DNA from: Marsupella aquatica
Taxonomy: Eukaryota > Plantae > Marchantiophyta
Assembly (NCBI GenBank): GCA_973895155.1
Contig: OZ316895.1
Location: forward strand, 23,532,622-23,596,621
Length of the DNA stretch: 64,000 nt
Direction of reading: 5' to 3'
Position numbers and translations under genes: made by a program. Positions within the stretch are counted from its first letter, which is position 1. Every line of letters begins with the position of its first letter. Of the stretch, positions 10,638-43,909 are shown piece after piece. Below the pieces are notes generated by a model. It had not been told where the DNA came from. It ran no database searches and worked only from the letters and a program-made list of their open reading frames with translations.

Positions 10638-13609
10638 GTTTGAGCATTCAAAACGCTGCACGGGACGGGGGCTCCATATAGTGCCACCCCCAAGGCCTAG
10701 AAAAAATTGTATGGCTTCAAGTGGAGGGAATTAAGGGGGCTACAGTTTGCTGCCCAACTGGCCCAGTTTTAGATTCATGGTCTGTTTTAGGATTTATATT
10801 CAAATTGCACTTTGCAACCTTACTATGCAGTTCCTCTACTAGACATTTCAATTTGTTGCTGAGTTAGTAGAACTTTAGTTCTTTGGCCATTTGTACTGTT
10901 GGGGCTATTTTGGCTCTTTGGTTTTCTTCGGATTTTCCTATGGATTCCCCCATTTGTTTGTTTGGTTTTTGTCCTATTTGGATTGTTTCCATCGTTAGTG
11001 GGTTCTTACTTGGGGTTCCTTTCTCCCAGTATGACCCATTTGGTTGTTTCTTTTGTACTCTTATATATTCCATAGTTTCAACCCAACCAGCCTGAAAAAT
11101 CTTACATCTTTATCACGTGGCTTCCAACGCATCTGTAAGTAATTGAAGGTTTATTAAATTATTCGTTTTGCTCTCTTTTCCTGGTAATTAAAACAGGGTT
11201 AAATGTTCCCTCACCAAACCCTATCCTGTTGCACAACACCCACGCCACTCAGCTCCTGCCACCTGCTGGGGCATGTATCATCCTTACAAAAAAAAGGAGG
11301 AAATCCAGCAACACAACAAAAGGCAATCATGAGGTTAAGGGGAGATCGAATGAGGAGGGGCCTTTGGGCTAGATTTTATTTACTGGAGGTTTTCTATTGA
11401 CTCTTAGACTAGATTTTTTAGTATCCTTTCTTGCCCATCTGATTCATGGCAGTAGTTTATCAGTTATATTGCATTATTTATGGAGCTGCATGGAAAGTGA
11501 GGTACTTAGCAGTGGGGGCCCCATTGGCCAGGGCCCACTCCTCTCTGCATACTCATGAGGGCTAAGCAATCAGGAAAAGCGAAGGCCAAGTCAAAATCTG
11601 ATCCTTGCATGTGGGTCCCATATTTTGAATCTTGCTTTTTCATTCTACTGTATGACATATCCTATGACTGTAGATATAATTGTTTTTGAATTTTGGGGAT
11701 TAACAAGATTTTTATCTCCATTTCTTGAGCATGGTACAGCCTAATTTTGAAGGTTTTTCCATTTTGCCAGTGTGGCGAATGTCACCTTGCGAGAAGGAGA
11801 AGATGCCAGGAATATTCCTTATCTACTTTACTACATTAATCTCTGGAGATGTTACGATGACCCTTAGATTCTGGCTATTGGGGTCATAGCTACAGTAGGT
11901 GGGAATCTGGCTAATGGAACATAGAAAACCTACACTAGTGAAGTACGGCCAAAGTGGTCAGGGCTTCTTAGTCAATTGTTAGCACTAAAAAAAACATGCT
12001 TGGCACCTCCTTGGAACCATGCAGTCCAACTGCACAGTTTTATGGAATGAGGGTGACCAAGGATTGCGCTTTTGACGACAGTGATATAAATAGATTAAAC
12101 TCTCGATGTTGCATGGATTCTATGTGGAAGGCTAACCCGTACCCATAGAAAAATGAAAAAATATGCATGCAGTTCAATTCCCACCACACGTATAAATCTC
12201 ATGTGAAGATATGCTCTATACAATATGATTGTGTAAGGTAACGCGTGGCCTTGAGATTACAAAGGAAAAAACATACAGTAGGGGTTTATTTCTATAGGAA
12301 TCCAATGGTGACGACCAGTGTTCCCGTTCTGTGCAAATATTTAGCACTTTTGCTCCGGGGTGAAGGGGCTTGCAAATAATACAATGAGGGATTTAAACTG
12401 TTTTAGTAACTTATCTGCAATATCAACTGTCTGGATCTGACTGTACATAGATATGATGGTCATAATGTGACCATACAAGTCCAATATGCAGTTTTATCTA
12501 AGTGACAATTTCTTAACTGGCTATAAGTAGCACCTGCCTAAAAACAAACGGAAACACTGGTGAGGACCCAGGTTTTGACTATCATTGTACAATGAATCTT
12601 GACACAAATATAGATCATTGTTATCTAAACTACTAGAATAACTCAGACCTCCATGTCTATTACTCCTCTAAATGTGACGATTGACAAACACATTTCAAAA
12701 TGAGCATGATGGTTTACATATCCTTTGTTTACCATTTGATGTGGAAAAAGAGTCTGGCATACTCAGGACTGCCTGCCACCCCAATATCTCCCTTTTCCTC
12801 CCTATCATTGCAGTGCAGACATGACTGTCGGGCTGACCTGGATACACAAAATGTCCAGCCACCGCACCAATTTCCACTACAACACTATGCACCTCTTTTG
12901 CGAACCACCACCCTTCGCATCATACAAAGGAAACAAAATCCGAAATACCCAATTTGCGAACTTACTCGCATCGCAACGTCTTCGCTACTTCCCATCTCAA
13001 ATTCTTCGCAAATGGCCCTTCGCAACTACTTCGCAACTTGCGATTCTAAATACGTCGCAACATCTCCGCAACGTTGCGACGGCACTGTCCTTGCAAATAT
13101 TGAGAAACGACAAATTTCATTATTTTGCGAGAACAAATGAATCGCTCGCGTTGCGATAACATTTACATCGCAATTTCCGATGTTAAATTTCTCTATAACT
13201 TGCGATGCAAACAAACTCGTAAGATTGCGAGAAGCGGATGACCGCTTTGTTGCGAAGGCATTTAACTCGCAAACGTGTGGAGAGGAAGTCTTCGCTAGGG
13301 TTGTGATTTAGACAACATCGCAAGTGTTGCGATGCGTTTCTCCTCGGAATGGTTGCGATACGTTCACCGTGGCTCTTTGAGATGGGGGTTGGTTCTCAAA
13401 AGCTTCGCAAAATGTATATTTCATGGGTTTTTGTGTATTTGGGTTAGGGTGAGGGTGAGGGAGACCATTCATGGGTTTTGAAGCAGGGAGGAAAGTGATG
13501 TTGACCCAGTCTGCCGCAATTAAAATGGCATTACTGAAAAAGTACAAAAGTTACAAAATGGAAGGGTAAAAACCCTTAGGTAAAGTGCCACGGCCATGCA
13601 TGCTGATCG

Positions 13610-15761
13610 CTATACATGTGAACTCGATGTAAGTGCTCTAGCTACAACTTGTCTACATCGAGCTAGAAAGGAGTGTTCCTGCCCCTCCTTGCCTTCTTCC
13701 CCTTGGCCTTCTCCTTGCCCTTGTGTGCTCTTGGGGGGGGGGGGGGGTGCAACCTGGACTTCCTCCTCCTCTTGGTCACCCTCGGGGTCACCCTCATCCT
13801 CATCCTCATCCCCACCTCCACCGCCCTGGCTTGCCGCGCTACCACCCCCAGCACCACTGGAACGTGCTGATGCAAATGACTGGTCTCCAGTGCTAGTTGG
13901 CCTGGCTTGAGTAGCAGGAGCTGTGCTCCCCTCCCCTGTCCCCTCCACATCCTCATCACTACTATCGGTGCCACCCTCGGTATGGGAGTCACCATCCTCC
14001 CCTCCCTGCTTCCATTAGCAAACTAGGGTGTCTGTTAGTCTCATATTCTTTACAAGTGTGAACAAAAGAGATATTCATTCAAAATTGCAATGAATGTAAT
14101 AACCTAAAAATTCTCACCAATAATTCATCAACTTGCTGAAAGAGATGCTCCTTCCCATGTTTCTGGCCCACCTCCATCTCAGCCGCCGTAATCTTCCTCT
14201 TGTACCTCTTGTACTAAGCCAAAACAAAACCAGCACAATTGGGTTAACACCAACCCATAACCCGATTCACATGGCTTCTAAAAATTAGGGGGTTTGTTGG
14301 GGCTGGTGGGGTGGTGCATCAAGGTTTTGGGGTTATGGAGGGTGGCATATATGGGGAAGACCCTCAAAGAACACTTAAACGATCGGAAAATTTAAAAATT
14401 CAAATTTTTGAAATTTTGCGAAGGCGCCAGCTTCGCAATCATAAGGACAATTACGTTTGCGAAGCTGGTTGCGATGCCAATGTCTTCGCAACGCCTTCGC
14501 AAACGTAAGCAAAAAAAGGGCATAATAAGGTTTGCGAAGGATTTGCGAAGCTACCCGCATCGCAAATGTATCGCAAACTCTGTCATGGCAAAAACCCGAG
14601 AGGGAAGCAACTGTACGTGACCTAATCTGACACAACAAGTCTAATTGTAACTACTTGGTGGAAATGCAAGAAAGAGTTGGCTCATTGCAGGTGTGTTGGA
14701 ATAGGAATTGGAGTAGCAAGAAGTCAAGGGAGGAGAGGGAGGTGCACTCACGAATGTTGCTTTGAGGCCGGGGAGGCCACCTTGACCCAGCCTGTGGGTG
14801 ATGTTGGGCTTGTCTCGGACTCGCTCAGCTGCCTTCAGGAACTTGTTGGGTGGATCGCCTACTTCTGCTACAACCTGCTAGAGCTGGGCTACCTTCTGCT
14901 CCATCACCTTCAGGTCCCGGTCAGACTTCCCGGCCTCCTTTGCCCTTCGAGCCTTTGCCAGCTTCTCTGTGAAATCATTGAGGAGCCTGGCTGCTTTCAA
15001 CTTCACCTCTGTCTGGTAGAAGGCCTGCCAGATATCTTCTGAGAATTGCAGCGGCCTCTGCAAATTCCTATACTCCTCCAAATCTCTAAGGTGAGACCTG
15101 ATCTTCATTCTATCATGGTATCTAGCTTGTGACATGGAGTTTGAAATTTTGTCAGCAAGCCACTGTGAATCCATCTCTCCTCCATTTCGAAATGCATCTT
15201 TCACCTGATTGATGACTCACTTCTGCTCTGCCTTTGAGCGAGTGCCCCACTCGACTCCTCTTGCAAAATTTGTGGATACAATGTGCCTGATTGTGCTCTT
15301 GGCCCCATTGTAAGCAAGCTCGGTGGGAATCCCCTCATCCTCTAAAGTAATCAGAGGCAGCTTCCTCCTTGCTGCCTCCTTCTTTCTTTGCTCCTCCCTC
15401 TGTTTCCTGATCAGGTCTCTCTCATCTTTCCTCCTCTTCTTTTCCAATGCTTGAGGCGAGAGCACTCCAGCCTGAGCTCTCTCGTCCCTCTTTCGCTTCC
15501 TCTCAGCAGCCGCCTGCTCTACTGCCTTCCTTGCATCCTCCTCCACTGCTGCTTGCCCTGCAATGAGACCTGCTTGCAAGGCTTGGCCCAGAAGGGCACT
15601 CAATGATGCCAGCCCTGCTGGACTGGTGAAATCAATTTGACTCAATTGTGCAACCGAAAAATGCTCATCCACAATCGCCTTCAATCGATCCCCCCCCCTC
15701 GGTTGCCTCCGCTGCTGCCAGAAGCTCCTCCATCACCACCAGTCCCCTCTTCGCTCGCCAT
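13610..15761 (-). pseudogene. Disrupted TnpA/Ptta-like (Transposase_24-like) gene of the CACTA element
   Basis: Reconstructed exons about 14752-15761, 14118-14213 and 13610-14047. Contains RPLQFSEDIWQAF and ITHRLGQGG, resembling the plant Transposase_24 P..W and H.LG..G motifs. In-frame stops at 15217-19 (TGA), 14878-80 (TAG) and 14015-17 (TAA), a frameshift in the G-run near 15690 and a probable one near 14770. Confidence 0.7.
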
Positions 15762-16479
15762 CGCTCCGCCCTTGCCCTCGTTGCTCTCCTCAGGCCTGAA
15801 TGAACTGAATCCGCCTTGTCCGCGCTCGGCAATCCATAAGGATTCAAAATATTGGGCTTTGCGATTCGTTTCGCATCGCAGTTTGCGATGCATCGGCCTT
15901 CGCAAAAAGCTTCGCAAATTCTATCTTTGCAAAGTTTCAAGATTCGCAAAAGCCTTCGCTATTTGGTTTTGCCATAACCCCCGTCTCGCATGCGTATTTG
16001 ATGTATTGTTAGGGATACTAAGGGGGCTTATGAACATTAAATGGGGTAGATGTAGAGGATTATGTTGCATTTTAGTGGGATGTGATGAGATAAGGATTGG
16101 GGGGGTTAGAAAATTGAAGGAGTTATATTGCAGGGTAAGAGGAGGGGGTTTGGCCTGGTTAGGGGAGGGTTTCTTTTGTGAAGGTTGGGCTTAGATTGGC
16201 TTAGATACGAGGGGTTTTATGTTTTGGGTTTGCAGGGGGTTTTATTTATGAAGGTTGGGGTTATATGTATTGGAGGGTAAGAGCTAGGAGGGGTTTTATG
16301 TTTTGGGTTTTGGGGTTTAGGCCAACTTAGGAGGGTTTGAAAGAGAGGTTTCAGTTTTATAGTATCTTGGGTTACTTTTATGGTATCTTAGGAGGGTAAC
16401 CAAGAGGGGTGGCATATAATTATGGTAGAGAGAAGCATAGGATGGTTGAAGGGAATTGACCATTTAGGTTTTTGCTAAC

Positions 16480-17510
16480 TTCATTGGCTTACGCTTTTAG
16501 AGTTCCCAAGGGTCTATGGTGGGTTTTTATTGCATGACACTCACCTTTCACTTGAAGCGGGATGAGGTTTTGGTTTTTATGCTAACAATTGAGGGAAATC
16601 CCATGTAATCATGATCCAGTGCAGGACCATCACTGCTTCCTCAACTTTTGTCTAATGCATATGCATTGTGGGAACCCGGACATCTAAAAGGTATATTTAA
16701 ACATGTATGTTAGCAGGGTTTGATAAAGAGATTGTTCATAAACCTTGCCCTTCTTTGTTGTGCAAGAATATCTATATGCACATGTTTGGGGGTCTACAAC
16801 TTGAGAGAAGCTAATGGCTATCCAAACTTACTTTTTTGTTTCCAGTATTTTCCTCGTGCTTCTAGATTCAGCTCATGTTCAATGAGCCACACGACCTACA
16901 GGCACTATTGAGTCCGGATCTCATTCAGGTAATTATTGTCCAACTTCATTCTGGGCTTAGGCCTTTAGAGTTTTCCCAGGGGTCTAGGGTGGGTTTTTAT
17001 TGCATGACACTCACCTTTCACTCGAGGGGGGATAAGGGTTTAGGGTTTAGGGTTTTATGCTAACAATTGAGGGGAAAACCCATGTAATCATGATACAACG
17101 CAGGGCCAACACTACTACCTCAACTTTTGTCTAATGCATATGCATTGTGGGAACCCGGGCATCTAAAAGGTATAACATCATGTATACAGTCAATGTTGTT
17201 AGTACAGATTTTTATGCTTGCCCTTCTTTGTTGTGCCATGATATATGTGGGTAAATGTCTAAGATTCCACAACTTGACGGCTGCTAATTACCATCCAAAC
17301 TTACATTTTGTTTCCAGTATTTTCCTCCTACTTCTAGATTTGGCAAATGTTCCAAAAATCACGTGACCTATAGGCACTGTTGAGCCCGGGTCTCATTCAG
17401 GTAATAATCTAACCTCACTTAGGACATAGGGTATTACAATTTTCCCAAAGGTTATAATGTGGTTTCTTCTTGCATGACACTCACCTTAATTTGGGTTTCA
17501 TGCTAACAAA
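16480..17510. repeat. Diverged internal tandem repeat, about 470-bp unit x about 2.2, in the CACTA intergenic region
   Basis: TTGCATGACACTCACCTT recurs at about 16530, 17000 and 17470. TGTCTAATGCATATGCATTGTGGGAACCCGG recurs at about 16650 and 17128. Confidence 0.85.
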
Positions 17511-17610
17511 TATAAAAGGGTAATAAAGCCCCATGTATAAACCAACCTAATTGTTTTTTGAGTTCATTTTTTTAAAAATCGCTTTATATATGGCCTAATT
17601 TTTCCTAATC

Positions 17611-18810
17611 ATGCCCTACATGCAATGTAATGTGGCAGTGGATATGTCCTCTTCCTCTGAACTATCCAGTAGTGAGTACTCCTCCGATGACGATATACCC
17701 CCTCCTCCTCAGCCCGAGGTTACTGGTCCTCGTGGTCCACCCCGAAGACTTTGTGACTGCACCAGATGTGTGGGCCAAATTTCTCAAAAATCTTATGTGT
17801 GTGCTCAACATATTGAGAGATATGGACGTCATAGAGGTCTTACTCCTAGGGCTTCTTCATCCCATATGGTAAGTTTGTTTCAATTGATTGCGGTTCTTTA
17901 CTGTTATTTTTAGAGGTGAATCAATGTTTACACATATGGTTTACACATTTGGTTGTTTGTGGGTGTTTGCATGGAATAGGGATCCAGTATGCGTAGATTG
18001 GTGACACCACCACCCTATGTCCCATCACAAGGAGTTTTAGATGCTATAGGCAATGCACTTTCACAAGCCTTGGGTTTGGGAATTAGTACCAGTCATGGGA
18101 CAGAAGGGGAACACCCTCATGTGCCCACTGAGACACGAAGACCCCGGTCCAGGCCCCAATCCAACAGGAGGCCACGAGCACCCAATGACCCATCCAGAAC
18201 ACTAGTTCAGGGTAGGTGGGGTGTTTGTTCATTCACTGGCAAGTGTGCCTCTATCATCAAGGATTGGGAACCTATCACTCTTGGCTTGCCTTATTTTACA
18301 GATTTTGATGAGGAGATTGTGGTTTGGGGTAGACGTTGGATTGTGAAAACTTCCACACTTGGAGAGAGACATGGATATGGAGTATTTGCTTGTGAGGATA
18401 TCATCATGGATGAGGAGGGTGGGTCAAGTGTTCGTGGTAGAGAGGGTCCTACTTTGTTCCCATACGGTGGACCCATCTACAAGAGAAGACATTGGAACAT
18501 GATCCTTGCACAACATCCTGAGTGGAAAACATATGCTCTAGAGATGGATACTTTTGATGGTAGCACTAGAAGGTATAGTGAGCAGCGGGTGATAGATGGT
18601 GATCCCATACGTAATGGGAATATTGCTGGTTTCATAAATAGTACTGTGGGGACTCGGCCCAAGCGTAGGGCCAATTGTGAGTGGGTTTTTACTGATGGTC
18701 CAATGCCGGCACCATATGGCACGACATATCATAAGGACCATTGCTTAGTTCTTGCTACTAGGACCATTAGAGCAGGAGATGAGTTATTCACACACTATGA
18801 GTGGGATTAG
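17611..18810 (+). CDS. Transposon-borne SET-domain protein (putative lysine methyltransferase); exons 17611-17868 and 17980-18810
   Basis: SET motifs in order: VKTSTLGERHGYGVFACEDI (GxG), YGG, DG...GNIAGFINS, ANC, and ATRTIRAGDELFTHY (GEEL..Y). The donor ATG|GTAAGT at 17868 and acceptor ATAG|GGA at 17980 join in frame (phase 0). The start codon could also be the ATG at 17644. Confidence 0.85.
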
Positions 18811-21800
18811 GAAATCATGTCCTTTATCCTCTTGCACCTATTTTGGACTTCCCATTTACTATTATATATATGGCCTTTGGGCTCATTTTGGAGTAATAAG
18901 GTTTTAGCCCATGCATTTACTTTAATTCTTAATGTCTTGAATGAATGGTGTTAAGTCTATTTTAATTTGTTGTACTTGGTCAAATATACATGAGGAGGTT
19001 TTTTGGTTGTAATGTGCATAGAATGCGCAACCATCTCAACAAATGTTACCACGAAGGTTGAGAGCAACATATTGGGAGATGGGTATGCCAGAAGAGGGAG
19101 AACCATCAGAGGGTGATTCCTCATCAAGTAATGATGTAGGTGGTGCTGATGAGGAAGCCGCACCTCGGACTGATGACCAGGTCATGCATGATCAAGATAG
19201 AGCCATGGATGACTTCATGGTTGATTGGTTTGGTGCCGATGTTGAGGATGATGTGCCTCACATTGGTCATGAGGTTGGCCCTTCAAATGACCCACGGCCA
19301 CAACATACTCCAGAGGGACAACAACAATGGAAAGAGGCAGAGGAACATGCTCGAACACCTATTTTTGAGGGTGCTCGGTTGAGCCGTCTTTCTGCCATAT
19401 TGGGGCTCTTGAACATTCAAGCCAAACACAAGACAAGCAATTCTATGTTATCAGACATATTTGAATATTGTCATGACTTGATGTTACCCTCGGAGAATGT
19501 GTTGCCAGGGACCTGGAAGGATGCAAAGAAGGTTCTCTCATCCATTGGTATGGATTACCATATTATTCATGCCTGTGTGAATGATTGCATGTTATTTCAC
19601 GGGGATACAGCCCATATCACAGAATGCACAGTGTGTCATGAGCCACGGTATGAGCCAAACATGCTAACCCAGAAGGTACCAAGGAAAGCAGTTTGTTGGT
19701 TCCCCATAATTCCTCGCTTGTTGCACATGTATAGATGTTCTTACTTGGCCGAGTTGATGGTATGGCACAAGAAACATCGTTCGGAGCCCGGTGTCATGCG
19801 ATTACCAGTTGACTCTCCTGCTCATAAACATGTGGAATCAACATGGCCAGATTTTGAGCGTGACCCTCGGCATGTGCGACTGGGGTTGGCATCAGATGGA
19901 GTTAGCCCTCATTCACTTGGAGGGAAGGGGAGACCTACATCGGTCTGGCCTGTGGTTCTCATGAATTACAACCTTCCACCATGGTTGTCCATGAAAAAGG
20001 GTTTTTTGTTGCTATCTTTGATTATCCCAGGGCCAAAGAAGGTGAAGAACATGGACACCTATTTGACATTACTGGTTCAGGAACTCCAGAAATTATGGGA
20101 AGGAGTATGGGCATATGATGGTCGAAAGACTACAGGGGGTACCCCACGGGTTTTCAAACTCAAAGGGGTTTGTATGTGGACCATGCATGACTACCCAGGT
20201 AAGAACTTTGTTGTTTAAATGCATCATATTCTAATGCATGGTATCCCCTCATTTCCATGTGCTAATCCTAACATAATGTGTGTTTATATGACCAGGATTT
20301 GGCTTTGTGAGTGGGTTGCAAACCCAAGGCTACAAGGCTTGCTCCACTTGTGGCCCAAGCCTTGGTGATGTAGCCAAGTATTCATCACATCTTCGCAAGA
20401 TTGTTTATCTTGGGCATACAAAGTTTCTTCCAATGGGACATCAGATGAGGCGTGACCCACTACTATTTTCCTCTATTGATATGCCCTTTGGTGACGAGCG
20501 TGATGTACCTGAGCCAACAACTTTTACACACTGGAAAGACATGGCTGCAAGAGTGGCAGACCCAGAGGATCCCATGCAATTTGATGGTAGTGGCTTGACA
20601 AGGTGGAGTATATTAACCACTTTGCCCTATTGGGGTGAGTTGAAGATCCGCCATCTATTAGACCCCATGCACATTGAGGGAAATGTGGGAAAGGCTTTGA
20701 TAAAGGCTTTCTATGGAGAGAAAGACACTAACTTCAGGGAGGCTTGTGAGGATCTTGAGATGCATCCAGACGTGTGGGTCATAAGTGATCCTATCACAGG
20801 GATCGAGCATCGACCTTCAGCTCCATGGGTGCTTCCTATTGGCCAGAGAAGGGAGTTTCAGAATCGCATAGGAGACATGCGGTTTCCTACTGGTTATGGT
20901 GCCAATCTCCGAAAGGCCTTTGGGATGGAGGACAATCATAAGTGGCCAAGGTATCTCAAGACACATGACTACCATAGGTTATTGCAGCACATATTGCCTG
21001 TGGCCATAATAGGTTTGGCAAGTGAAGAAGTGCAAGATGCCCTTTGGTCATTGGGAAAACTATTGAGATGGGTATGCTCTAAGGAGATATATACTGATGA
21101 GATCCCTGGGATGGAGGTTTTGGTAGCAGAGGTGGTATGCAAGTTGGAGAAGGCCCTTCCTCCTTCCTTTTTTGACTGTCAAGTGCATTTACTTGTTCAT
21201 CTTGTTCATGAGGTGGCCATTGCAGGTCCTGTGCATTGTCGGTGGATGTATTGGCTAGAACGATACATGGCAGTGTTAAAAGGTTATGTACGTAACCGTG
21301 CACGGGTTGAGGGAAGCATGGCTACAGGATACTTAGCAGCTGAGAGTATGTTCTATTGTAGTAACATATTGGCCACAATTGATTGTACCTCTCCCCGTAC
21401 TTGGGTAGAGGAGAGGGAAGATGAAGAGGATCGTTTAACAGGTGCTAGGAAAACTCGCATGTTGACATCAGTGGAGGTGAAACAACTGACCACATTCATG
21501 TTGAGTAACAGCACTATCATGGAAGAATGGAGGGATTTCTATGAGGATGCCAAAAGTAACAGCACAAGACCAAGGATTTTTCCAAAGTACCTTGACTATA
21601 TGAAGGAGAAGTTAGTTGAGGTGGATGACATGGTGGTCAGGGGAGAGAGTGTATTACATTTTCCGGCTATCACAGATGATGTTCGTACCATTGTTCATGG
21701 TCCCTTGAGAGTGGTTACAACAAGGACAGCAATGTGGACACAAGGAAGACATTTCAGGTGATCTCCATCTACCTTAGTAACCTTTGATTTGAATCACTTG

Positions 21801-22415
21801 GTTTAATTTAATTCATTTGTAATACAAGCACGTATATTGAAGAGGCAGATTCTTGGTGTGTTCAATTAATTGGAATATGTTTGTGTCTATTTTTGTGTAA
21901 CATATCCTTATGGTTTGATGGATTTTAGGATTTCTTCCCTTGATGAGAAGAGGGGTCGTACCTTTGATTGTGGAGTTCAAGGACAATTCTCTCAAGATTC
22001 CCGCAGCAGTCGGCATGACACAAATATTATTCGAGATGTTGTGCCACATTATGGAAAGGTAGAAGAGATTCTAGTGATATCTTATGATGCACAATCAAAG
22101 TTTGAAGAGTATGTCTTCAAGTGCAAATGGTTCAAAGTGAACCTTGCAGGTAACAATCCTACTGTGGTTCAAGATGAGTGTGGATTTACACGACTGAAGA
22201 CTTCTGCCACTAGTTTCCAGCCATCTCATTGGCAAACATCAGAGCCGTTCACTTTTCCAAGTCATGTGGAACAATGTTTCTATATTCCATACCCCCCAAA
22301 CCCAGAGGAATGGTCACTTGTCATCACATATGTGCCACGGTCTCGTTCAATCGTTGGGGAAAAGCCTGATATTCTGGTTGTGTCCCAACCTGAAGATGAT
22401 GAGGACCAAGTTTGA
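17611..22415 (+). CDS. CACTA TnpD/Tnp2 transposase; exons 17611-17868, 19022-20198, 20296-21757, 21929-22415
   Basis: Transposase_21-type motifs IHACVNDCMLF, RHVRLGLASDG, WPVVLMNYNLPPW, LIIPGPK, WTMHDYPG, LDPMHIEGN; DUF4218-type LKTHDYH, FFDCQVHLLVHL, GPVHCRWMYWLER; DUF4216-type YGKVEEI, FKCKWF, EPF. All junctions are GT-AG and keep the frame, with no stops. Use of exon 1 is inferred. Confidence 0.93.
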
Positions 22416-24498
22416 GGGGTCTGTGTTTGTGGATATATAGCTACACGGATATATAGTTAGATTTGATGATATGAAGATTTCTCTTCTCGGTAGAATGGAG
22501 AAATATGCGCTTCTCAATTATCAATAAACTTATGTTTTGTAAGTATATCATTTTCAAATGTTGTTTTCTATATCTCCCATCCCTACCCCACACTCACCAC
22601 ACCTTTTGGTAGACTTTATGCAAAGAAAACTCATGTTGCTTGTAGTCCTCTATCCTCCATGCTTTCCTAATCCCCCCTAGCTGTTCTCCTTATTACTTGT
22701 ACCCACCTCCCTCCTCCTTTCTTTCATTGTCTGTCCCTCTTATTAAACCCTCCTTCCTCCTTCCTCTCCTTGTCCCAACCCCTGGCTTTCTATTTCAACC
22801 CTATACTTTCCTTACTTTCCACCCCTGTCCCCCACTCTTACCTATACAACCTAGCTTCTCTCCTCCCTCCTAAACCTATACCCTTAAACCTCCCTCATTT
22901 CCTTGTCCCTCTCTAAACCAATACCCTCCCTCCTTTCCTTGTCCCTCTCTAAACCCTAAACTCCCTCCTTTTTATTTTCACTCCCTAAATCCAAACCCTC
23001 CCTAAAACTATATCTACATACCCTTCCTCCTCCCTCATTTCCTTGTGCCCCCTAAACCTGTATCCTCCCTCTTGGATCCCTCCGTTCCTTGTCCCTCCTA
23101 GCCCCATTCCCTTCCTCCTCCTTTTCATTGTCCCTCCCTAAAAATTACATGTATCCACCCTCCTTTACCCTCCCTCCCCAATCCCATTCCTTTTCCACCT
23201 CTTTGAAGCGCTCATAATATTTTGCGAAACATCTTGCGAAACCCCTACACCCGCAAACTCATCGCTACATTTGCGATACTTAACAGCTCCCTAATTGCCA
23301 TCATCCCCTCATCGCAAACTTCCGAAGATACCACCATCTCAAAGTTGCGAAACCAAAACATTCACAAAATGAGACCCTAGACAGGCACAGGATTTGCGAG
23401 CCTATTACTATTGCAAGTTAGCCATATATTCCACAAACATCGCTCATTTGCGAGACAATAAGACTCGCAAAATATTTTGAGATGCTTAAATATTCGCAAC
23501 CATTTAGTTTTCCAGCGCATCTCAATGAATTTGCGAAGCGGTAAAGATCGCTAACTTGTTCAATGGTAATTGCTTCGGGAATGTTTTGCGATACCTGAAG
23601 TGTCGTAAAATGTTGCGATGGTCTAAGTTTCGCAATTATGTGTTGCGATGTGTGTAGATTCGCTAAGTGCGATGCGTATCGTATCGCAAGGTTAGCGATG
23701 AGATTAATCTTGCAAAGCTTTCTTCCTCTTGTAAAACGCCTTCGCAAAATTGGCAAATATGTAGTAGTGTTCCCGTCCAGAGATTTCCCTCGCCATCATG
23801 GAGAGTCACACTTACAAGAAATCTTGAGAGACGGAATATGATTTGGCATACTCTTGGAGCACTTAAAATACAAGGAAGGCAATTAAATATGGCTGATGTC
23901 TGCTCCACAAGGAAGAAGACAACAAACACCCATTCTGGTTCTACCCTTATTCTGGCTCTACCCTTACGCCCAAAAATGTGGTCCAGGAGATGGGTTATAG
24001 TCATCCATCTTATGAAACCAACTGTAGCAGTCTTTCAAGAGGCTTCATTGTCTCAATCTTCATCAATGAGGGCCTAAAGAAGATGACAAATTCTGTTATG
24101 ATGGCAAGTTCTCTCAGGGCTTCATTCGCCATAGTGTTTAGGAGCATTCAATTTGGATTCAAATGGTCACCATGTGGATGTGAAGTGGTCAATCTGCCAA
24201 TGTATTTTTGTTACAAAAGTGAGGGTGTGTTAGATGCAGTAGGACCTGTTCATGTAATCCTAAGTGAAATGATGGCTGTAGACAGAGAATTATGCTGGAT
24301 GTTTATCTGTCCATCTATCTCTAGGGAGAAACAAAGAGTGACAAGGAAACTGGTGACACATGAAACAGTGAACTGTCCCTGCCAGAACCTAGGGTGATAG
24401 GAGAAATGGCCAGGTGATAAGGGAGATGGCAAGGTGACATGGGATATCTCTGGACAAAGCAAATATTCAACCCATTGTCAAATACTTTAAGGTCATGC

Positions 24499-33449: not shown

Positions 33450-34537
33450 GGAGCTGAACTGGTAAGATCTGGTACTTTTGAAACATCATGAGCTTCTTCC
33501 TAATCATCATCCGAACCATCATCAAGTCCTTCCAAAACATCAAAAACTTTAGTCTTGAGCATGTGGAAGTGTTCCCTGAAGAGCGTCTCGGCTTCCTGTT
33601 GAAGTTTAGTTGCTGCAAGCGTCCGAGCGAGTCTGAGCATGTGTGGCACATTATCTACTGTTAATTGTCGGCAAAGCTCAGAAAAATTCCTTCAGAAATC
33701 CAATTTCCAGACAATGTGCAGCTCTGAGGACCTCATCAGGGCGAACAAATTCCGAGAAAGTTAATTCTCCAGAATGACAAAAATTCGATAGTTCTTCGTA
33801 GACTGGGTCTGTGCCAGAAAACAGCTCCTTGACCGGTTTCAGTCCAGTTCGACCATTCGCTATCGCCTCTTGGACGAATCGTGATTTTGCAGCCTGTACA
33901 TCATGTTGAAACAATATTGTTAACCAACGAACAAAGACACTCATATATCCTAAAGTCACATTTAAGATTTGATTTTCATGAAATGACGCCAGAAGTAAAC
34001 AAATATTTCGAGGTCCAACTACACCGTCATTTTTGAGGAACAGGAAACAGACGTTGGCGTGATGTCAGCCAATGGGATTAGAAGCAAGGAGTACAAATTC
34101 CTCACCACGACAGACAAAATTACAGCTGCAGGTGTAGGCACCGTAGAGCCATTGAGCTTTCGCATTGTCCACGCAGGCAGAAACTCGCGGGGCAGTTTCA
34201 AAAACTGCACCATAATTCCCTGGCTAAGGTTTTCGGCCTTCAGCCTCTCAACCTCCGATAGTAATTGCTCGTACTCTGTGCTCTTGTTCGTCAATGCAAG
34301 GGAGCTCTCGGCAGTTATCCTGGACAGTTCAGTTTGATGATTTTCTTTGGACGCGGCAAATGCAGCCCGCACCAACCTCAATTCAGCCTGAAGTTCCGTA
34401 ACTTGTTTCTCATGGCGCGATTGACAACTGGAGCAGCCAGAGATATCCAGACGATATTGACAGCCACTTACCCAAGTACGAACCACTGCCGGTAAATCGG
34501 CCTCCAAACAGTATTTACAATACTTCTGTGTTGACAT
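33450..34537 (-). pseudogene. Zn-motif/coiled-coil/BTB-like gene, copy A (frameshifted)
   Basis: Exon 1 34106-34537 (YCKYC...GCSSC plus coiled coil). Exon 2 starts at 33893 (AAKSRF...). A small deletion after IGFLKEF gives TGA at 33678, and the paralogous VDNVPHML sequence continues out of frame. The 3' end is approximate. Confidence 0.7.
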
Positions 34538-36607
34538 TACTGCTAGATAGCGATCGGTCTTTCAAGACATATCAATTACCGTTTATTCGAGAAGCTAAGC
34601 ATTGAAGCCAAGACGTTCTAAAGGGAAGATCAACAAGTCAATCAAATATATTAAGGTTGAAAAACGACGAAGATGTCACTCATGAACTACTCAAGAGCAG
34701 ATAACACGACAATCGCTTGATACAGATCATCTCTAGTGAGAACCCGGGGCACGGCAAGAGATAACACGACAATCACTTGATACAGATCATCTTGAGTGAG
34801 AACACGGGGCACGAAATAGAACACTGAAGCCGGGACTGACGCACGATATAAATCTCTCTACCATTTGTTGAGTGAAATACCCACTGCTGATTTTGTCTGC
34901 TTGGACAAACCGGAAATGGCGGGACTCCAGGAATCTACTAGGCCGATCTGGCGATCTGCTGTGTGTTCGCAATAATTAAGCACGGAAGGGGACTAAATGG
35001 GTTGAATAATGTGGCCGCCAGCAGCCAGCCACCCTGGCGGCGTAATGTCTGTAGTATGCAGGTCATAAGAAATAATGTGGAATCTACTGTACTGTAGATG
35101 TACCATATGTCTGCCGACGAAACCAGATGATAACTCAGTCATGTAAAGTACTCCCCACAGCATTTCTAAAACCATGCCTAATTCGTTGTTTGTTTCGTTG
35201 AAATGCTGAGCCACGTACAGTGATCTGTCCACACGTATAGGTGGAATGACTGTGTTCAACATGCGATGTAAGTCATAATTACTGGACCCGCGCCGCTGAG
35301 TTGTAACTTGCGATCGATTGAAATGCGGCCAAGTGTCCCTTTTATCTTTTTAACTTTCTTCCGAGAGAGGTTACTTTCCGAAATTAACGAGTCACAGCAA
35401 GTTCAACAAGTGATGCATTTACAAGTGCTAGAGATTAGTGTATACTTTCGTCTGACAATAAACTACTGACTGTGTTTCCCCTTCAACTGTCATCGATGTT
35501 ACCGATCAAACGTGACCGGGATGGCAACTACGATGTTGAAAACAGACGTTGCCAATTGACCAGTTTTCTTATTTCAAGGGTTTAAGCTTTGAAAGAAACG
35601 CTAGTTTTTCTCTTGTTTCAACGGTAGGCGATATTCCTTGTTAACCATAAAATTACTTTGCAATCCCGAGAGAATTCATTCCTTAATCTTCAGGTACACG
35701 TAGGATAGACATACTGTAGGGCTACCGACGAAGCCAGATGATAAAGTCCTACAGTCAGTATAAAAAAGCGCAGCATTTCTAAAGCCATATCTAATTTCGT
35801 TATATGTTTCCTTGAGATGGTAAGCCACTTACGGTGATCTGTCCACACGGATGGGTGGAATGACTGTGACACAGAGTTCAACTTGCGACGTTAGTGATAA
35901 AATACTGTACCCCTACGCGCCATGTGTTCTTGAGATGGATTGGAATGTGACGAAGCGTACATTTGCATGTTTCCGATCCGTCCTACTAACAGGGCAGCTG
36001 AGTAGTCTCGCTGAGATCCCGGCTGAGATCGCCTTGCTATTTAATGCAGGTGGAGGGAGAGGGCGATCGAACGCGCGAATGTGCTCCAAGAAATTTAGCT
36101 ACCAAGGAGATTGATAAATCAACGATGGAGACCAAATTTTAGAAGCAGAAAAGGTGCCATAAATATGATGCCATACAGTTTGGACAAAACATCATGTAAT
36201 TAAACCAACGACCATGTAGTTGATTGCAAGCAGATTCAACCCTGACAAAATTGGTTGAGATGCGGGAATGGTTCCACGACAGCTTCCAGAATTCAGACAT
36301 CCTTCTTCAAGAGAAAGGAAATCTACACCTCAACCATTGAGTGGAAGCAGACGTCACGCTATTTGCTTAGCGTTCGAGTTAGACATTCGCAGGAAATTAT
36401 AGATCAGGAATTTATAGATCTTAGTCAAAGGGCAGCTAAAATCCGAGGAAGCATCATCCAAAGAAGGATCTTCGAACATGATACCGTGGGAAAACTAGAT
36501 TCAAAGAATCATTTCGTACTACTACATTTGGAGCCCAGTAATTATCAAAATACTGGCAGGTCCCGAATGTGGAATTGAAATGGTTCAAAACAGGTCCTTC
36601 CGAAACA

Positions 36608-37891
36608 TCAGATCCTTCCGGTCGTAGCATGATCAAGACCTTCTAGACCGTCATAAAACTTAGTCTTCAGCATGTCGAAGTGTTCCTTGAAAATATTCTC
36701 CGCTTCCTCTTGCAGTTTAGTTGCTGCAAACTTCCGAGAGAGTTTGAGCATCTGTGGCACATTATTTACACTTAATCGTCTGCAAAGCTCAGCCTCACAA
36801 AACTCCTTCAGAAACCCAATTTCCAGATTATGTGCAACTTTCAAGACCTCATCAGGAGGCACTAGTTTCGAGAAAGTCATTTCCCCACGATGGCAAAACG
36901 TCAGTATTTGATCGAGTATTGGCACCGTCACAGTCCCAAGAAGATCCAGTAATGGTTGCTCTAAAATTTGACTTGCGCGTAGCATCATCCGGACGACTGG
37001 CGATTTTGCAGCCTGTACATGTAACAAGGCATAACATCAATTACGAACGGAGTACATATCGACGACATAACCTTAATTTACCTAGTATCTGCTTAGACGT
37101 CCTCCCAGCTGGCTTCCAACATTTATTTCGACTCTTAGATTCGACAATCAAGGAAACCAATTCAAATTGAAACTGACTTCCTACGCAATGTCCTCCAAGA
37201 ACCACTCACAAATCACCCCATGAACTTTGGAGAAGAGAATGTAGCATGCATGGTGTTAAAATCAAGAAAAAATTTAGAGGTCGATCCCCACCGTCATGAG
37301 GTGTTTCGTTTAGAAGGAAACAGAAGCTGACGTGATATCAGCCAATTGAATTGCAAGTATGGAGTACGAATTTCTCACCAGGACAGACACCAGGACAGAT
37401 AACTCTGCACCTAGACGTGGAGGTATCTTGAGGCCAGTCCTGGCCGCTTGCAGTTGCCACACATGCACAGGCGGGGGGTGCAGTTTTAAAAATTGCACTA
37501 TATTCCGCTGGCTGTCGTTCTGAGCCTTCAGCCTGTTAACCTGCGACAGTAATTGTTCGTACTCCGTCTGCTTGTGCACCAAGGCAATCGATCCCTCCGA
37601 TAGCAATTGCTCGTACTTGGCCTTGTTGTTCATCAAGGCAAGCGAACTCTGGGCTGTTATCCTGGACAGTTCAGTTTCGTGACTCTCCTTCCCGCTTTCT
37701 TCCGACTTTGCAAATGCAGCCCGCAGAGACGTCAATTCCATTTGAAGGGCCATAACTTCTTCCTCATGACGCCGTTGACAACTGGAGCAGCCCGAGATTT
37801 CCAACCGGTGAGAGCCGTTTTCCCAACTACGAACTACTTCCTTCTGATCAACCTCCAGACAGTATTTACAGTACCGTTCTGCATTCATCAC
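36608..37891 (-). CDS. Zn-motif/coiled-coil/BTB(POZ)-like protein, copy B (intact); exons 37379-37891 and 36608-37012
   Basis: In-frame GTGAG...TACAG intron. Exon 2 AAKSPVVRMML...LDQILTFCH...VLKVAHNLEIGFLKEFCEAELCRRLSVNNVPQMLKLSRKFAATKLQ matches the C-terminal half of BTB plus the BACK-like helices of SPOP/BPM-type adaptors. Confidence 0.8.
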
Positions 37892-40384
37892 TTCTAGATA
37901 CTGGTCACAATTTACAATGTGTGGGCGTGATCGAGATGGATATAGCTACCAAAGTAAGCGTTCTAGAGGAAGATCAAGATGTTGGCGAATTCCTCAACAG
38001 GAGAAACCACGACAATCACTTTATATCTATCATCTGGAGAGAGAACTCCAGGCAAGCGGTAGAACACAGGGGGACGTACCGCTCATTTTTGCACTTCGAC
38101 AAACCTGATCGAAAAACGGCAAGACGGATTCAAGGAATCTAGCAGATCTGCTGCATGTTCATAATGATTACGGTGCTTTCATTCGTGTACAGGAGGCCAT
38201 GCCCTTGGCGGCCCAATGGCTACCAGAATTATAACCACTCCTCTACAATCCCGAGGCAATTTATTCCTTTATTATCTTTGCTCGTGGTAAAGACGTACTG
38301 TAGAGCGAAGAAGTACTCTGGGTAGGGTTCCATCGGCCCTCATACTACACTTTGAGGGTTTCTCGTAAATCTTCATATTTCTGGGAGTCTGTGGGAGCCG
38401 TATTCCATCTGTCCTCATACTACACTTTGAGAGTTTCTTGTAGACCTTCATATTTCTGGGAACTTGTGGGAGAAGTATACCCTTCCTGAATTTTTATGAG
38501 ACATTATTACTGCCACTGAACTATTGGGCCAGTTGGAACTGGGACTTCTGAAATTTGAATGAGAAATATAATAAATGTAAATGATAGACAAGTGAATGCT
38601 TTGTAAAAATTCACTCAAGCTTTACACTTTGTAACTGATCTTCACTTGGGGATAATGGCAATAACCCCCTTGGGGATGGGTTACCCTACACATTATTTGT
38701 TTGCAGGCAACCCTCTGGTTTGAAAATTGTCTAAAATGAGAGCAGATGGCTTGCAACCCATAAGGTTTGTTTCAAATTCCAATCGGCTCTCAAGTTCTAG
38801 TTTGGTGTACACAGTGAAGTATTCTTTAGAGGCACTACGGGATGTAATGCACTGCAAACAAGAAGTTTTACCTCAAATTTTGAGAAGTTATTATGTTGAG
38901 CATAGACAATTATCGAAACGACAAGTTTATGAACCATGAATTTTCACTATCAAAACAAATATCACTTGGGATATAGAGTGTATAGCCTAGTTAACCTACT
39001 CTAGTTTCCAACTAGATAAATTAACTCTAACTACGGTTAGGGCCCGTCACCTTAGACTAAAAGTAAAAGCCTAATATACTATTGCCCATGATGTTCCAAA
39101 AACAGGCCCTAAGTGCACTTGAGGTACTGAATTATTTATTTATTTTAACTTTGGTATAACAAAAAATCCTAAAGAGGCTAATCTTGAATGGGCATTATGT
39201 TCCAAATGAATGCTCTCAAGTATACAAAATGAAAAATCACTAAAGGCATTAAGTTTAGAATAGTATGAAATAGCCTTCTTTGACAAGCTAAATTTGTTAA
39301 TACTCTATTCAAGATAGAAGAAAATTTACATAGAATAATCTTTATTGATGACTAAGTTAGAATAACTAAGTAATAGAACAGACCACCTGCAGTAGGTATA
39401 TGCTCACTGAATTGAATATGGCCGTCATTTGTGTTGAGTCCGCCAAACAAGGGGCGAAGTTTCTGTCAGATCACATCAAAACCTGTCCCCCGGTAAGTTG
39501 TCTTAAATCGTAAAATGAGGCTAATGAAGATCGCTAATCTAATCCCCACGAGCAGCAGTTCTCGTAAAGGATGCGGCATTGTCGAAATACTCATCTCTGT
39601 GCATTTATTCATGAGAACTCTCAGTGTATCACGGTCTGTCCCAGCTGACCTCGAGTTACCGGCCCTCAAGACATCTGAAAAGATGCTATGATCAACTGGA
39701 ATTTCGTTCGCTATATTGCCATGGATTCCTCAAGAGTATACATTCGCCCATCCCAAATTAGTGTAATTTAGTTGAACTCAATAGTCGCCAGCTCCTGGAA
39801 ACAATTTCAAGGGTGTAACCATTGGACAGTATCACGATAGGATAACAGTACTGTAACCAAACAAATTTAAATTCTTACGAGGAGACGCTGTACTATGCAA
39901 CCAAAGTAAATCGGAATTTTTGGAATGGAGATACACGCAAACAAATATTTCATGAGAGACCTACAGTAGCTACTTCGAATCCGTAGAGAGGACCTGTTAT
40001 TGTGTCAAAGAAATTAACTGCCCAAGAACACGTAAATAATGCCAAACTTGACACAACGGTAATGCAATTAAATCAAAGACCATACAGTTGATTATGCAGA
40101 CAGAACTTAGAAGTTCCTGCTTCAGACAAGGACAATCTCCGCCTCGACCTTGAAGAGTAAGCAGACATGATCGACGCTGATTTGTTCAGCGTTCAAGTAA
40201 GACACTCTCAGGAATTTAAATACAGATTAGACTGATTGTTCCTAGTCAGCGATCGTCGCTAAAATCAGGGGTCCAAGCATCAGCCAAAGGCACTTCCAAT
40301 AAAATCCGCGAGAAAGTGGATGAGAACGATAATTCCGAACTACATAAAATGGAGGCCAATCAACTTGTCTAAATCCTGAGTTGT

Positions 40385-41498
40385 TCATTGTGGAGCCGAA
40401 TGTCGAGCTGAAATGGTACCATCAAGTCCTTCTGAAACATCATCCGGTCCTCGTGAACGATCATCACCTCCTTCCGAGCCATAACTATCAAGTCCTTCCA
40501 AACCATCAAAAACTTTAGTCTTTAGTATGTCGAAGTGCTTCCTGAAGAGCTTCTCGGCTTCCTCTTGAAGTTTGGTTGCTGCAAATGTCCGAGCGAGTTT
40601 GAGCATTTGCGGCACATTATCTACTTTTAATCGTCGGCAAAGTTCAGTCTCACAAAACTCCTTCAGAAACCCAATGTCCAAAGCATGTGCAACTCTGAGG
40701 ACCTCATCAGGACGTACAAGTTCCGAGAAAGCTATTTCCCCAGAATGACAAAAACACGTTATTTCTTTGAAGGCCGGGCTTGTCCGCATTATCTCCTGGA
40801 TTGGTTTCAGCAGAGATAGATCTTCCGTTAGTGCCTTTTGCAATATATGCTGGTGATTTTGCAGCCTGTACATGTGAGAAGCCATATTGTTAACTAGCAG
40901 AACACAGACCAATGAGATGAGATGTCCTATACAGACATTTGGTCCAACGTCCTGCTGGTATCCAACATTGATTTCGCATTTCAAGGATTTGATTTTATGG
41001 AATGGTGCTCAACTCAAAACAACATTTTCAAGGTCCACACCGGCATTGTGAGGACAAGGGAACGGAAGTTCACGAGATGTAATCAAGCCACTTCAACTCT
41101 AGCAAGGAGCACAAATTCCTCACCACGACAGACAACTCTGCACCTGCATATACAGGCACATGAAAGCCGTTCACCGTTCGCACTACCAACTCAGGCAGGG
41201 ACTCGGGGCTCAGTTTCAAAAATTGCACCATACTTCGCTGGCTATTGTTTTCAGCCTTCAGCTTGTTAAGCTCCGACAGTAATTGCTCGTACTCTGCCGT
41301 CTTGTTTGTCAAGGCCAGCGAACTCTCGGCTGTTATCCTGGACAGTTCAGCTTGAAGTGCCGTAACTTGTTTCTCATGGCGGTATTGACAAGAGTAGCAG
41401 CCCGATATATCCAAACGTTATTGAGCGCCAATTACCCAACTACGAACGACTTCCGTCGAATCGGCCTCCAAACAGTACCTACAATACTGTTTTAACAT
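40385..41498 (-). pseudogene. Zn-motif/coiled-coil/BTB-like gene, copy C (disrupted)
   Basis: ATG at 41498 (MLKQYCRYCLEAD), in-frame TAA at 41418-41420, and the exon-2 start AAKSP (40865) is out of frame with the downstream BTB ORF. Confidence 0.7.
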
Positions 41499-42131
41499 CA
41501 CTGCCAGCTAGTGATCACCCGTCAAAATATATATCTTACAGTCTGTTCCAGAAGCTGAGCATCGACGCTTAGAAGCTACCTAGCTAGTACCAACAGTGAA
41601 CGCTCTAGACGAAGATCAAGATGTCGATCAATGAAGGCTAGGTATTCGATGACATCTTTCAAGGCCAAAACATAAAATATCGTTGACACACTGCTCGACA
41701 GGAGATCAAACGACAATCACCGGAAACCGATCGTCTCGAGAGAGAACTCGAGGCACGCAGTACGACGTTGACGGGCAACGTTGATCTCAGTACCATTAGT
41801 TCAATGAAGTAGCCACTGGGTCAGCTTGTTTTCCTGCTTGCATGGGCAAGTCTCCAATGGCGGGAATCAAGGTATCTACCGGGCCGTTCTCTCTGTGTTT
41901 GTAATAACTAAGCACGGAAGGGGAATTTACAGTGAACCATGTGGTGTCATTCATCTACACGGAGCCACCCTGGCGGCATAATGTGTGCAATTATGCCAGA
42001 TCATGACAAATAAGGAGTCTATCCCGACGTGTACCGGTAGATTAAGGAGTGAAATCTCTCTGGATTGTAAAGCGGTAGATTAAGGAGTGAAATCTCTCTG
42101 GATTGTAAAGCAGCCAGATATATGCTTGATT

Positions 42132-42475
42132 GGCCCGTGAACCTTTCTTACCTGATGGGCCCTTAGTTAATTTTTTTAACCAAATAAAATTTCTCTTAAT
42201 GACTAGTACACCTATTCTAGTGTGGTGTTACACTTGTCTTTTTGTGATATCTATTATGTACAGTGACTCTAGGCAAATTGCACGGTTGGATTGTGCGACC
42301 GGCCCTACATGGTCCAATCGTGCAATTTGCTTGGAATCATTTTACATAGTAGGCATCACACAAGAATAGGTGTAGATACCACACAAGAACAGGTATATTG
42401 GTCATTAAGAGGGGTCCTATTTGATAAAAGAAAGTTAACTAAGGGCCCATCAGGTAAGAAAGGTTATCAAGGGGC
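42132..42475. mobile_element. MITE-like foldback element (about 345 bp, almost wholly palindromic)
   Basis: AACCTTTCTTACCTGATGGGCCCTTAGTTAA at the left is the reverse complement of TTAACTAAGGGCCCATCAGGTAAGAAAGGTT at the right. Pairing continues inward to GCAAATTGCACG...CGTGCAATTTGC. No clean TSD was identified. Confidence 0.75.
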
Positions 42476-42477
42476 TT

Positions 42478-42972
42478 GAGTTTGGCAGAATTGTTACGGC
42501 CCTGTAGCTAATCATAATCAGGTATTTGATCATGGTCTATCTACCAAGCTAGAGTTTGGCAGAATTGTTACGGCCCTGTAGCTAATCATAATCAGGTATT
42601 TGATCATGGTCTATCTACCAAGCTACCTACCAAGCTACCGATAAATCAGCTGATTTAGACAATAGGGCTCCAGCTGAAGCCAGATCATAAAGTCGTATAA
42701 AAGTCCCCGAGTATTCCTAAAGCCATATTTAATTTGTTTTCAGTTTCCTTGAGATGCTAAACCACGTACAGTGATCTGCCCACAAGGATGGGCGGAATTA
42801 CTGTTATTCTTGCAATGAAAGTCATAATTGCTGTACCCATGCCCCCCCCTCTGTTCAACTTGAGATGCTAAACCACGTACAGTGATCTGCCCACAAGGAT
42901 GGGCGGAATTACTGTTATTCTTGCAATGAAAGTCATAATTGCTGTACCCATGCCCCCCCCTCTGTTCAACTT
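42478..42972. repeat. Two adjacent tandem duplications (74 bp x2 at 42478-42625; about 111 bp x2 at 42748-42972)
   Basis: GAGTTTGGCAGAATTG...CCAAGCTA twice and CTTGAGATGCTAAACC...TGTTCAA twice. Confidence 0.9.
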
Positions 42973-43909
42973 GCTGTGGACTGGAATGGAGATATATGCT
43001 TGATGGGACCTCTCGCAACCTGTTTCACGACTTTACAAAATTATTTGGCTTCTCAGTTGGAACCATATAAGATCCACACTAGTGTGGGTAACAAAACTTT
43101 CATAGGGTCCTACTAGGGAGCAAAAGTTTTATGGGGGCCCATTGCACTAAAAAGCTCCGCTAGGGGTCCCATCCTCAAGTATATACCTCGACTGGAATGC
43201 AGCTTAATGGCTTTGCTCTCATTTTCTTTTTCTGAAATTTTTCCGAGAGGTTTGTGTCCGAAATGTTACCAGTTTACAAAAGTTCCACAAGTGATGCACG
43301 TACTTACTTTTGCTAGAGATTAGGGGGCAAGCGTACAGTAGTTTTACTGGTCAAACGAAATTTCCACACAGAACTTTGGCCTCCAAACATTACCAGTTGA
43401 GATCGGGTTTACTGGATGTGGTGGGAGAGGGCGATCGGACCTGCACTCCAAGAAATTTATCTACCAAGAAGACTGATCCATCAGATTTTAGAAGCTGAAA
43501 TCGCACATACTGCTATGATTCCCTTCAAAGGTGCCATACAGTTTGGAGGAAAGATCGAGCAATTAAATCATAGTTATCGGCAAGCAAACTCGACGCTCAC
43601 AAAAATTGGCTGTCATGCGGGCATGGTTCTGCTAGAGCTCTTAGAATTTACAAGTTCCTACATATAAAAAAATGGAAAACTAAGCTTTCATCTCAAGATG
43701 GAAGCAGACATCAGATATTTGCTCGACGTCCGAGTTACACTCAGAGGAAATTATAGATCAGGAAATATAGATCTTAGTCGGAGAGATGCAGCTCAAAGCC
43801 GAGGATGATCCGTGGGATAATCGGATTCAGAGTATGATTTCAAACTACATTTGGAGGCCAAAAGTGGTCTAATGGCCGGTCCCGAATGTGGGTCCCTAGC
43901 TTAGACACA

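Follow-up and report, generated by a model that had tools for sequence, protein, structure and literature searches.

In maize Spm and in the Arabidopsis families EN/SPM3 and EN/SPM7, the transposase and an accessory protein are produced from one gene by alternative splicing, as described in the available part of PMC13547354. The subterminal repeats of Spm are recognized by a tandem HTH domain of TnpA, according to the available part of a second report (bioRxiv 10.64898/2026.08.24.746577). SET genes carried by DNA transposons are on record as well, namely in the HarbingerS and MuDR families of Phytophthora (PMC12730594, accessible text) and also in Helitrons and in the EnSpm lineage Plavaka of red algae (bioRxiv 10.1101/2025.02.11.637652, accessible text). 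In the literature covered, with Repbase Reports and subscription journals outside its scope, we found neither a bryophyte SET-CACTA element nor work on the function of PF13963, the transposase-associated domain; the available part of PMC4158355 held nothing further on the transposase N-terminus.

Here, we analyzed a stretch of 64,000 nucleotides from the liverwort Marsupella aquatica, referred to below as the window, in which a complete CACTA element carries a SET exon, probably inside its transposase gene (Table 1). The sequence leads us to favor, with somewhat better than even confidence, the reading that the first coding exon is the transposase gene's own, and that the SET exon in the intron behind it would give rise to two proteins by alternative 3' splicing. 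Such an arrangement would resemble maize En/Spm and Arabidopsis EN/SPM3 and EN/SPM7, in which one CACTA gene gives two products and the accessory protein is made from transposase-derived parts, with the difference that the splicing is predicted here (available parts of PMC13547354 and bioRxiv 10.64898/2026.08.24.746577). The En/Spm accessory protein, as portrayed in these parts, is an HTH DNA-binding regulator, whereas at the locus described here a SET enzyme domain, probably captured, precedes the transposase body. With HarbingerS, MuDR, Helitrons and Plavaka PAG2, our element shares the presence of SET on a DNA transposon, and Plavaka belongs to the same EnSpm/CACTA superfamily. In the accessible accounts of these families, however, SET resides in accessory genes, PAG2 being a DNA adenine methylase-SET fusion within a three-gene cassette. 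Unlike in HarbingerS, MuDR, Helitrons and Plavaka as described there, the SET exon would be nested within the transposase unit and fused to the transposase's Cys/His tip, and it occurs in land plants. While SET-carrying transposons are already known, a SET exon that is nested in a transposase gene and borrows the first exon of that gene appears to be new.

SETMAR/Metnase also combines SET and a transposase in one transcription unit, as a domesticated host gene that encodes a full SET-transposase fusion. In contrast to SETMAR, the SET exon described here ends in a stop codon and has no strong in-frame donor to the transposase, and it belongs to a mobile, multi-copy element.

Table 1. Positions of the CACTA element and of the features within it, given in window coordinates.
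Feature	Position	Strand	Remarks
Complete CACTA (En/Spm) element, 10.9 kb	12875..23769	.	Termini CACTACAAC / CACTACTAC
Left subterminal TTCGCA/TCGCAA repeat field	12875..13420	.	Hexamer matches n=28
Divergently oriented accessory gene, helical, acidic tail	13610..15760	-	ORFs; interrupted in the window copy
Second probable 5' UTR exon	ends at donor 17170	+	Block and donor conserved between window and L001; putative
Probable 5' UTR exon	17339..17400	+	Inferred from block and donor 17400, conserved between window and L001
First coding exon, ATG 17644, 75 codons	17639..17868	+	Ser/acidic/Pro-rich start, Cys/His core, short tail
C-x-C-x2-C-x13-H-x4-G-R-H module	17752..17832	+	Very probably a shortened remote homologue of PF13963 core positions ~34-67
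GT-AG intron, 111 bp	17869..17979	+	Equal length in L001
SET-domain terminal exon, 276 codons + stop	17980..18810	+	Phase-0 acceptor; PF00856
Second acceptor CATAG/AAT, phase 0	19020..19021	+	Before transposase body, 211 bases past SET stop
TnpD-type transposase body, three exons	19022-20198, 20296-21757, 21929-22415	+	PF02992, PF13960, PF13952
Right subterminal repeat field	23200..23769	.	Hexamer matches n=23

The element shows the hallmarks of the CACTA (En/Spm) superfamily, i.e. CACTA termini with a 3-bp target-site duplication (TTC at 12872-12874 and 23770-23772), subterminal repeats, and a Tnp2-type transposase. TTCGCA/TCGCAA hexamers are concentrated in the two subterminal fields and in two smaller fields inside the element (14400-14580 and 15850-15960); these four zones hold 77 hexamers in 1408 bases, compared to 33 in the other 62592 bases of the window. 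Read depth in the public DNA run X1 was about 520-2650 within the element and 16-77 in the flanking bins, which indicates that the CACTA family is multi-copy. The accessory gene on the minus strand carries stops at 15217-15219 and 14878-14880 that are private to the window copy, other copies being different at these sites. Its protein had no match in Pfam (all three pieces), in the PDB, or in a local phmmer search. A stretch near 15050-15350 resembles what we take to be DNA-binding helices of the TnpA type. Donor-like sites were also seen on the minus strand at 16535-16547, 17003-17015, and 17476-17488.

Outside the element, the window contains an uninterrupted nad7 reading frame of 419 codons on the minus strand (complex I 49-kDa subunit; 57262-58521; PF00346, E 1.8e-124), which lies in a nuclear, repeat-rich context; nad7 in the nucleus is typical of liverworts. 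At 33500-45300, a unit of ~3.1-3.9 kb is present in four diverged copies in tandem, probably a tandem gene array, in which one frame has a BTB/POZ match (40388-41008, 21.7 bits). A MITE-like inverted-repeat element of ~325 bp, with 38-bp arms that are 95% complementary, is located at 42140-42465, and an ORF of the MOT1-type molybdate transporters (PF16983) at 51934-53478 on the plus strand.

The translation of 17611-17868 is free of stops and contains RRLCDCTRCVGQISQKSYVCAQHIERYG. The first-pass annotation had taken this interval as a first exon with a CxCxxC...H motif. The motif was retained, whereas the start had to be moved downstream: the ATG equivalent to 17644 (MSSSS...) is the start in L001, a related metagenome locus that served as the reference for exon conservation and dN/dS, and in nearly all models from Sphagnum and Calypogeia. 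The ATG at 17611 was dismissed because it is not conserved among the relatives; judging from the sequence, it probably sits in an intron that ends at the AG of 17637-17638. The exon is likewise first in the coding sense only, since two blocks with donors at 17170 and 17400 are conserved between the window and L001 and 5' UTR exons are thus probable upstream. At its downstream end, the exon is bounded by a phase-0 donor (ATG/GTAAGT at 17868), and both the exon and this donor are kept in L001.

Short blocks with plus-strand donors are found at 17140-17400 of the window, with a duplicate at 16650-16930, and at 280-495 of L001. When these blocks (17140-17400 and their L001 counterpart) are joined, one frame encodes a short Cys/His peptide with a Y-R-H-C-stop end in both loci, and no start codon for this peptide was seen in the blocks of either locus. 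They may represent UTR exons with a conserved upstream ORF at 17140-17400; the unit of ~480 bp is tandemly duplicated in the window copy.

A six-frame search of the window gave a single C-x-C-x2-C-x13-H-x4-G (17752-17826), compared to an average of zero in 30 block-shuffles; the bare CxCxxC is frequent, with 13 occurrences in the window compared to a shuffle mean of 3.4. Between the window and L001, protein identity of the first coding exon amounts to 71%, with a dN/dS of 0.25 for the whole exon and 0.47 for the leader. The Cys/His core (36 codons, dS ~1.0) is under purifying selection, its dN/dS being 0.13. An alignment of 11 relatives shows no change at C37, C39, C42, or H56, and the motif is conserved in the relatives from Sphagnum and Calypogeia.

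We then asked how the exon relates to the transposase-associated domain at the N-terminus of plant CACTA transposases, to which it had been likened. PF13963 at the N-terminus of TnpD/Tnp2 has the same C-x-C-x2-C-x13-H-hydrophobic-x3-G core as the exon, and both show a predicted helix after the Cys cluster; in its predicted join to the transposase, the exon would, like PF13963, also lie ahead of an acidic linker and the Tnp2 body. In contrast to PF13963, the exon is also in frame with SET, and it has neither the helix half, nor the W-x-x-H-G-E, nor a Pfam match. Searched against Pfam, it hit no family at E up to 10, PF13963 included, and nine further queries with homologues or ORFs gave no PF13963 match. 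The N-terminal half of the domain (positions ~1-33, with the W-M...Y..G-V..F helix) is absent, the leader being Ser/acidic/Pro-rich instead, and neither the exon nor the GR-type transposases of its clade (see below) have the C-terminal W-x-x-H-G-E. By the Pfam gathering cut-off for PF13963 (27.7 bits), the exon is not a member of the family and is without two of the domain's three parts, but it matches the core. The proposed resemblance hence holds for the core and does not extend to membership in PF13963.

The match to the core was characterized with the best 150 relatives of the transposase exon. Among the 76 of these that have long N-termini and were scanned by Pfam, 46 contained PF13963 above the cut-off and 3 more below it. 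The spacing of 13 residues from the third Cys to the His, as found in the exon, was present in 36 of the 47 motif-bearing proteins among the 150 relatives. With a local PF13963-like profile built from 44 of the 46 Pfam-confirmed stretches (two near-duplicates were left out), the exon ranked top among 1327 ORF pieces of the window (12.7 bits, E 0.009; next 7.0 bits), although the scores from the local profiles, 12-15 bits, are far under the 27.7-bit cut-off. No shuffle of the core reached the score of the exon in 1000 free permutations, compared to 22 of 1000 when C, C, C, and H were fixed and 78 of 1000 when the Gly was fixed too; most, but not all, of the PF13963-like signal thus stems from the five motif residues. 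HHalign aligned the exon family to the PF13963-like profile with 91.8% probability over 34 ungapped columns (template 34-67 of 76), a result reached by 0/60, 0/60, and 1/60 column-shuffled decoys. The reverse search with the exon profile against the 150 relatives was weak (best 7.6 bits). Taken together, these comparisons make it very probable that the exon is homologous to the transposase-associated domain, in a remote and partial manner. On the structural side, the module part of a homologue model had a pLDDT <50, a single-sequence model of the 40-residue core reached a mean pLDDT of 60, and VIA-align with this low-confidence core model returned one row (Z 2.2), which is uninformative. A two-copy prediction of the module (residues 26-70, two zinc) scored 0.00 with an uncertain fold, and a PDB sequence search with the exon alignment gave no match.

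Intermediate forms of the module are found on transposases that lack SET. Five such models (P0113, P0130, P0132, P0144, and P0215) have a shortened module as their own N-terminus with an H-x4-G-R end, which the H-x4-G-R-H end of the exon resembles, and three of these five bridge models match PF13963 at 13-15 bits, i.e. below the cut-off, over positions 29-71. A GR-type profile of the five sequences scored the exon at 14.5 bits, and 4-6 of 1000 shuffles with the motif fixed did as well; there is some circularity in this score, because the five were picked by eye after the motif was known. The transposase tree (143 rows, with 8 left out because their coverage was short; rooted at the midpoint; support by SH-aLRT only) is independent of this hand-picking. 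Here, the window transposase and three SET-containing models fall into a 7-row group (SH-aLRT 93), and a 37-row clade (SH-aLRT 100) holds this group together with all five bridge sequences; all PF13963-labelled rows (Pfam matches plus five labelled by motif only) are located in the other 106 rows. The distant SET-bearing relative P0099 shows the same C-x-C-x2-C-x13-H-x4-G ahead of a SET remnant. In the simplest history, the module would be the ancestral transposase tip of the 37-row clade, and SET would have been inserted behind it. Scans of viral and prokaryotic genome contigs with transposase patterns revealed no relative.

The SET exon matches PF00856 with 27.1 bits (cut-off 22.4), and its core has a dN/dS of 0.22 between the window and L001. 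A PDB sequence search with the exon gave no match. In the model of the Calypogeia homologue P0002, the SET part folds confidently, and Foldseek retrieved 234 PDB chains with E-values of 0.001 or less, SET8 being the best match (E 3.9e-7); as this fold match is at 18% identity, H4K20 is not assigned as the substrate. Applying what we take to be the usual names of the SET motifs (GxG, YxG, (R)FxNH, and ELxxxY), we found GYGVFA, FPYGG, and ELFTHY to be present, and GFINS without a His after the Asn; the weakly matching SET domain of LegAS4 likewise has no His at this site. A post-SET Cys cluster is absent. Relatives of the SET exon amounted to 46 matches among 756 candidates, the named ones being from Sphagnum, Calypogeia, and Riccia, and a weak search for longer SET fusions (484-2000 aa) found none among 1598 candidates. 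The SET exon (17980-18807) shares 67-70% identity with P0001 from Sphagnum and P0002 from Calypogeia; for the first exon, the value is 78-85%. Since this identity is high for a moss/liverwort split, the element may have been transferred horizontally among bryophytes.

The splice sites around the SET exon are compatible with two joins. The acceptors before 17980 (SET) and 19022 (transposase) are both in phase 0, as is donor 17868, an agreement that alone has a one-in-three chance. Donor 17868 is the sole phase-0 donor of at least 7/9 in the coding exons before 19022, in the window as well as in L001. Joining the exon to 17980 gives an open frame of 351 codons (module-SET), and joining it to 19022 gives an open 1116-aa model (module-transposase), in which the motif lies 221 residues before HACxxxC; the range in 35 PF13963 proteins is 96-223. 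L001 has preserved the second acceptor at its end, and so have divergent copies in run X5; the spacing of 12 bases to a conserved block is unchanged. The ORF from 19022 carries no Cys/His motif, in line with what had been noted for the ORF from 19043, as one Cys only precedes HACVNDC from either position. A read-through fusion of the full SET and transposase parts was rejected, given the stop at the end of the SET exon and three strong internal donors that are in phase 1 compared to the phase-0 acceptor; the database chimeras P0021, P0072, P0097, P0099, and P0100, in which SET is truncated, were treated as predictor joins.

These sites and the relatives of the exon lead us to consider it probable that the exon is shared and that both isoforms are made. 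A different history would be a subfunctionalization, in which the exon comes from the transposase N-terminus but now serves the SET gene only, and the transposase mRNA skips the exon and SET or starts separately, with translation from ATG 19043. Seven codons separate the acceptor from this in-frame ATG, for which four DNA runs show no variant row; there is a good upstream donor at 17400 that is conserved in L001, and the Arabidopsis EN/SPM families alternate between spliced and split-gene layouts according to the available part of PMC13547354. In addition, public gene models either link the exon with SET or continue into the intron, and none of the 13 longer proteins found with the exon joins it directly to the transposase. 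Predictors, however, presumably favor the nearer acceptor, and the public models would therefore not test the longer join. Moreover, of the 55 relatives in which the N-terminus is long, 40 have such a motif on their own transposase, and the divergent family preserves the frame from the acceptor to ATG 19043; its first codon is identical there, and its Pro codon is synonymous. We therefore regard an exon restricted to SET as unlikely, though not negligibly so. It is highly improbable that the motif arrived with the captured SET gene or by convergence and is unrelated to the transposase-associated domain. The lack of a Pfam match, the commonness of CxCxxC in the window, and the shuffles with five fixed residues that equal the PF13963-like score would fit such an origin; the exact spacing and the ungapped profile-profile match, the G-R-H end shared with transposases from its clade that lack SET, and a location as expected for the missing transposase N-terminus argue against it.

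According to the reading that we favor, i.e. a first coding exon that belongs to the transposase gene, an ancestor of the transposase lineage would have captured SET as an alternative terminal exon, and alternative 3' splicing would decide between a module-SET protein of 351 residues and a module-transposase of 1116 residues. The Cys3-His pattern suggests that the module may bind one zinc via C37, C39, C42, and H56. It might then be a small docking surface through which the SET isoform is recruited to the protein complex of the element, or to its chromatin, with the module itself not reading TTCGCA, and the SET domain would methylate a lysine of a histone or of an element protein in favor of the element. 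The docking role is the weakest step of this scheme, and we put it forward tentatively, as less likely to be right than wrong. The first-pass annotation had envisaged a transposon-derived targeting or dimerization module, a role that is conjectural. In its strong form, this alternative makes the shared module a sequence-specific DNA-binding domain, which would read the TTCGCA repeats and target SET methylation to the element. The density of the subterminal repeats, the Cys/His-rich and basic composition with a predicted helix after the Cys cluster, and the low dN/dS of the core are consistent with DNA reading. The core, however, comprises only ~27 residues, and the opposite strand has a helical accessory gene of its own, perhaps TnpA-like, that could fill this role. 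In Spm, moreover, the repeats are read by the tandem tri-helical HTH of TnpA, as far as the available part of bioRxiv 10.64898/2026.08.24.746577 reports. Because of this known reader and the accessory gene present here, we prefer docking, and we judge a TTCGCA-reading module to be improbable.

If the transposase skips the exon, the finding would come down to a further SET accessory gene that bears a relic of the transposase. In its most far-reaching form, which is speculative and rather unlikely to hold in full, our interpretation would be that a CACTA lineage of mosses and liverworts has built its own chromatin writer by exon capture, that the zinc tip on SET docks at the transpososome or subterminal chromatin, and that splice choice toggles between 'mark myself active' and 'jump'. 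Should the shared use of the exon be true, the transposon would have acquired an epigenetic enzyme with no need for an additional promoter or start codon, by a route in which an enzyme exon enters the first intron of the transposase and the tip is reused. Overall, this would provide a natural experiment on the transposase-associated domain, with a module that is useful on the transposase and the SET enzyme alike, and would make docking versus DNA reading by the module directly testable.
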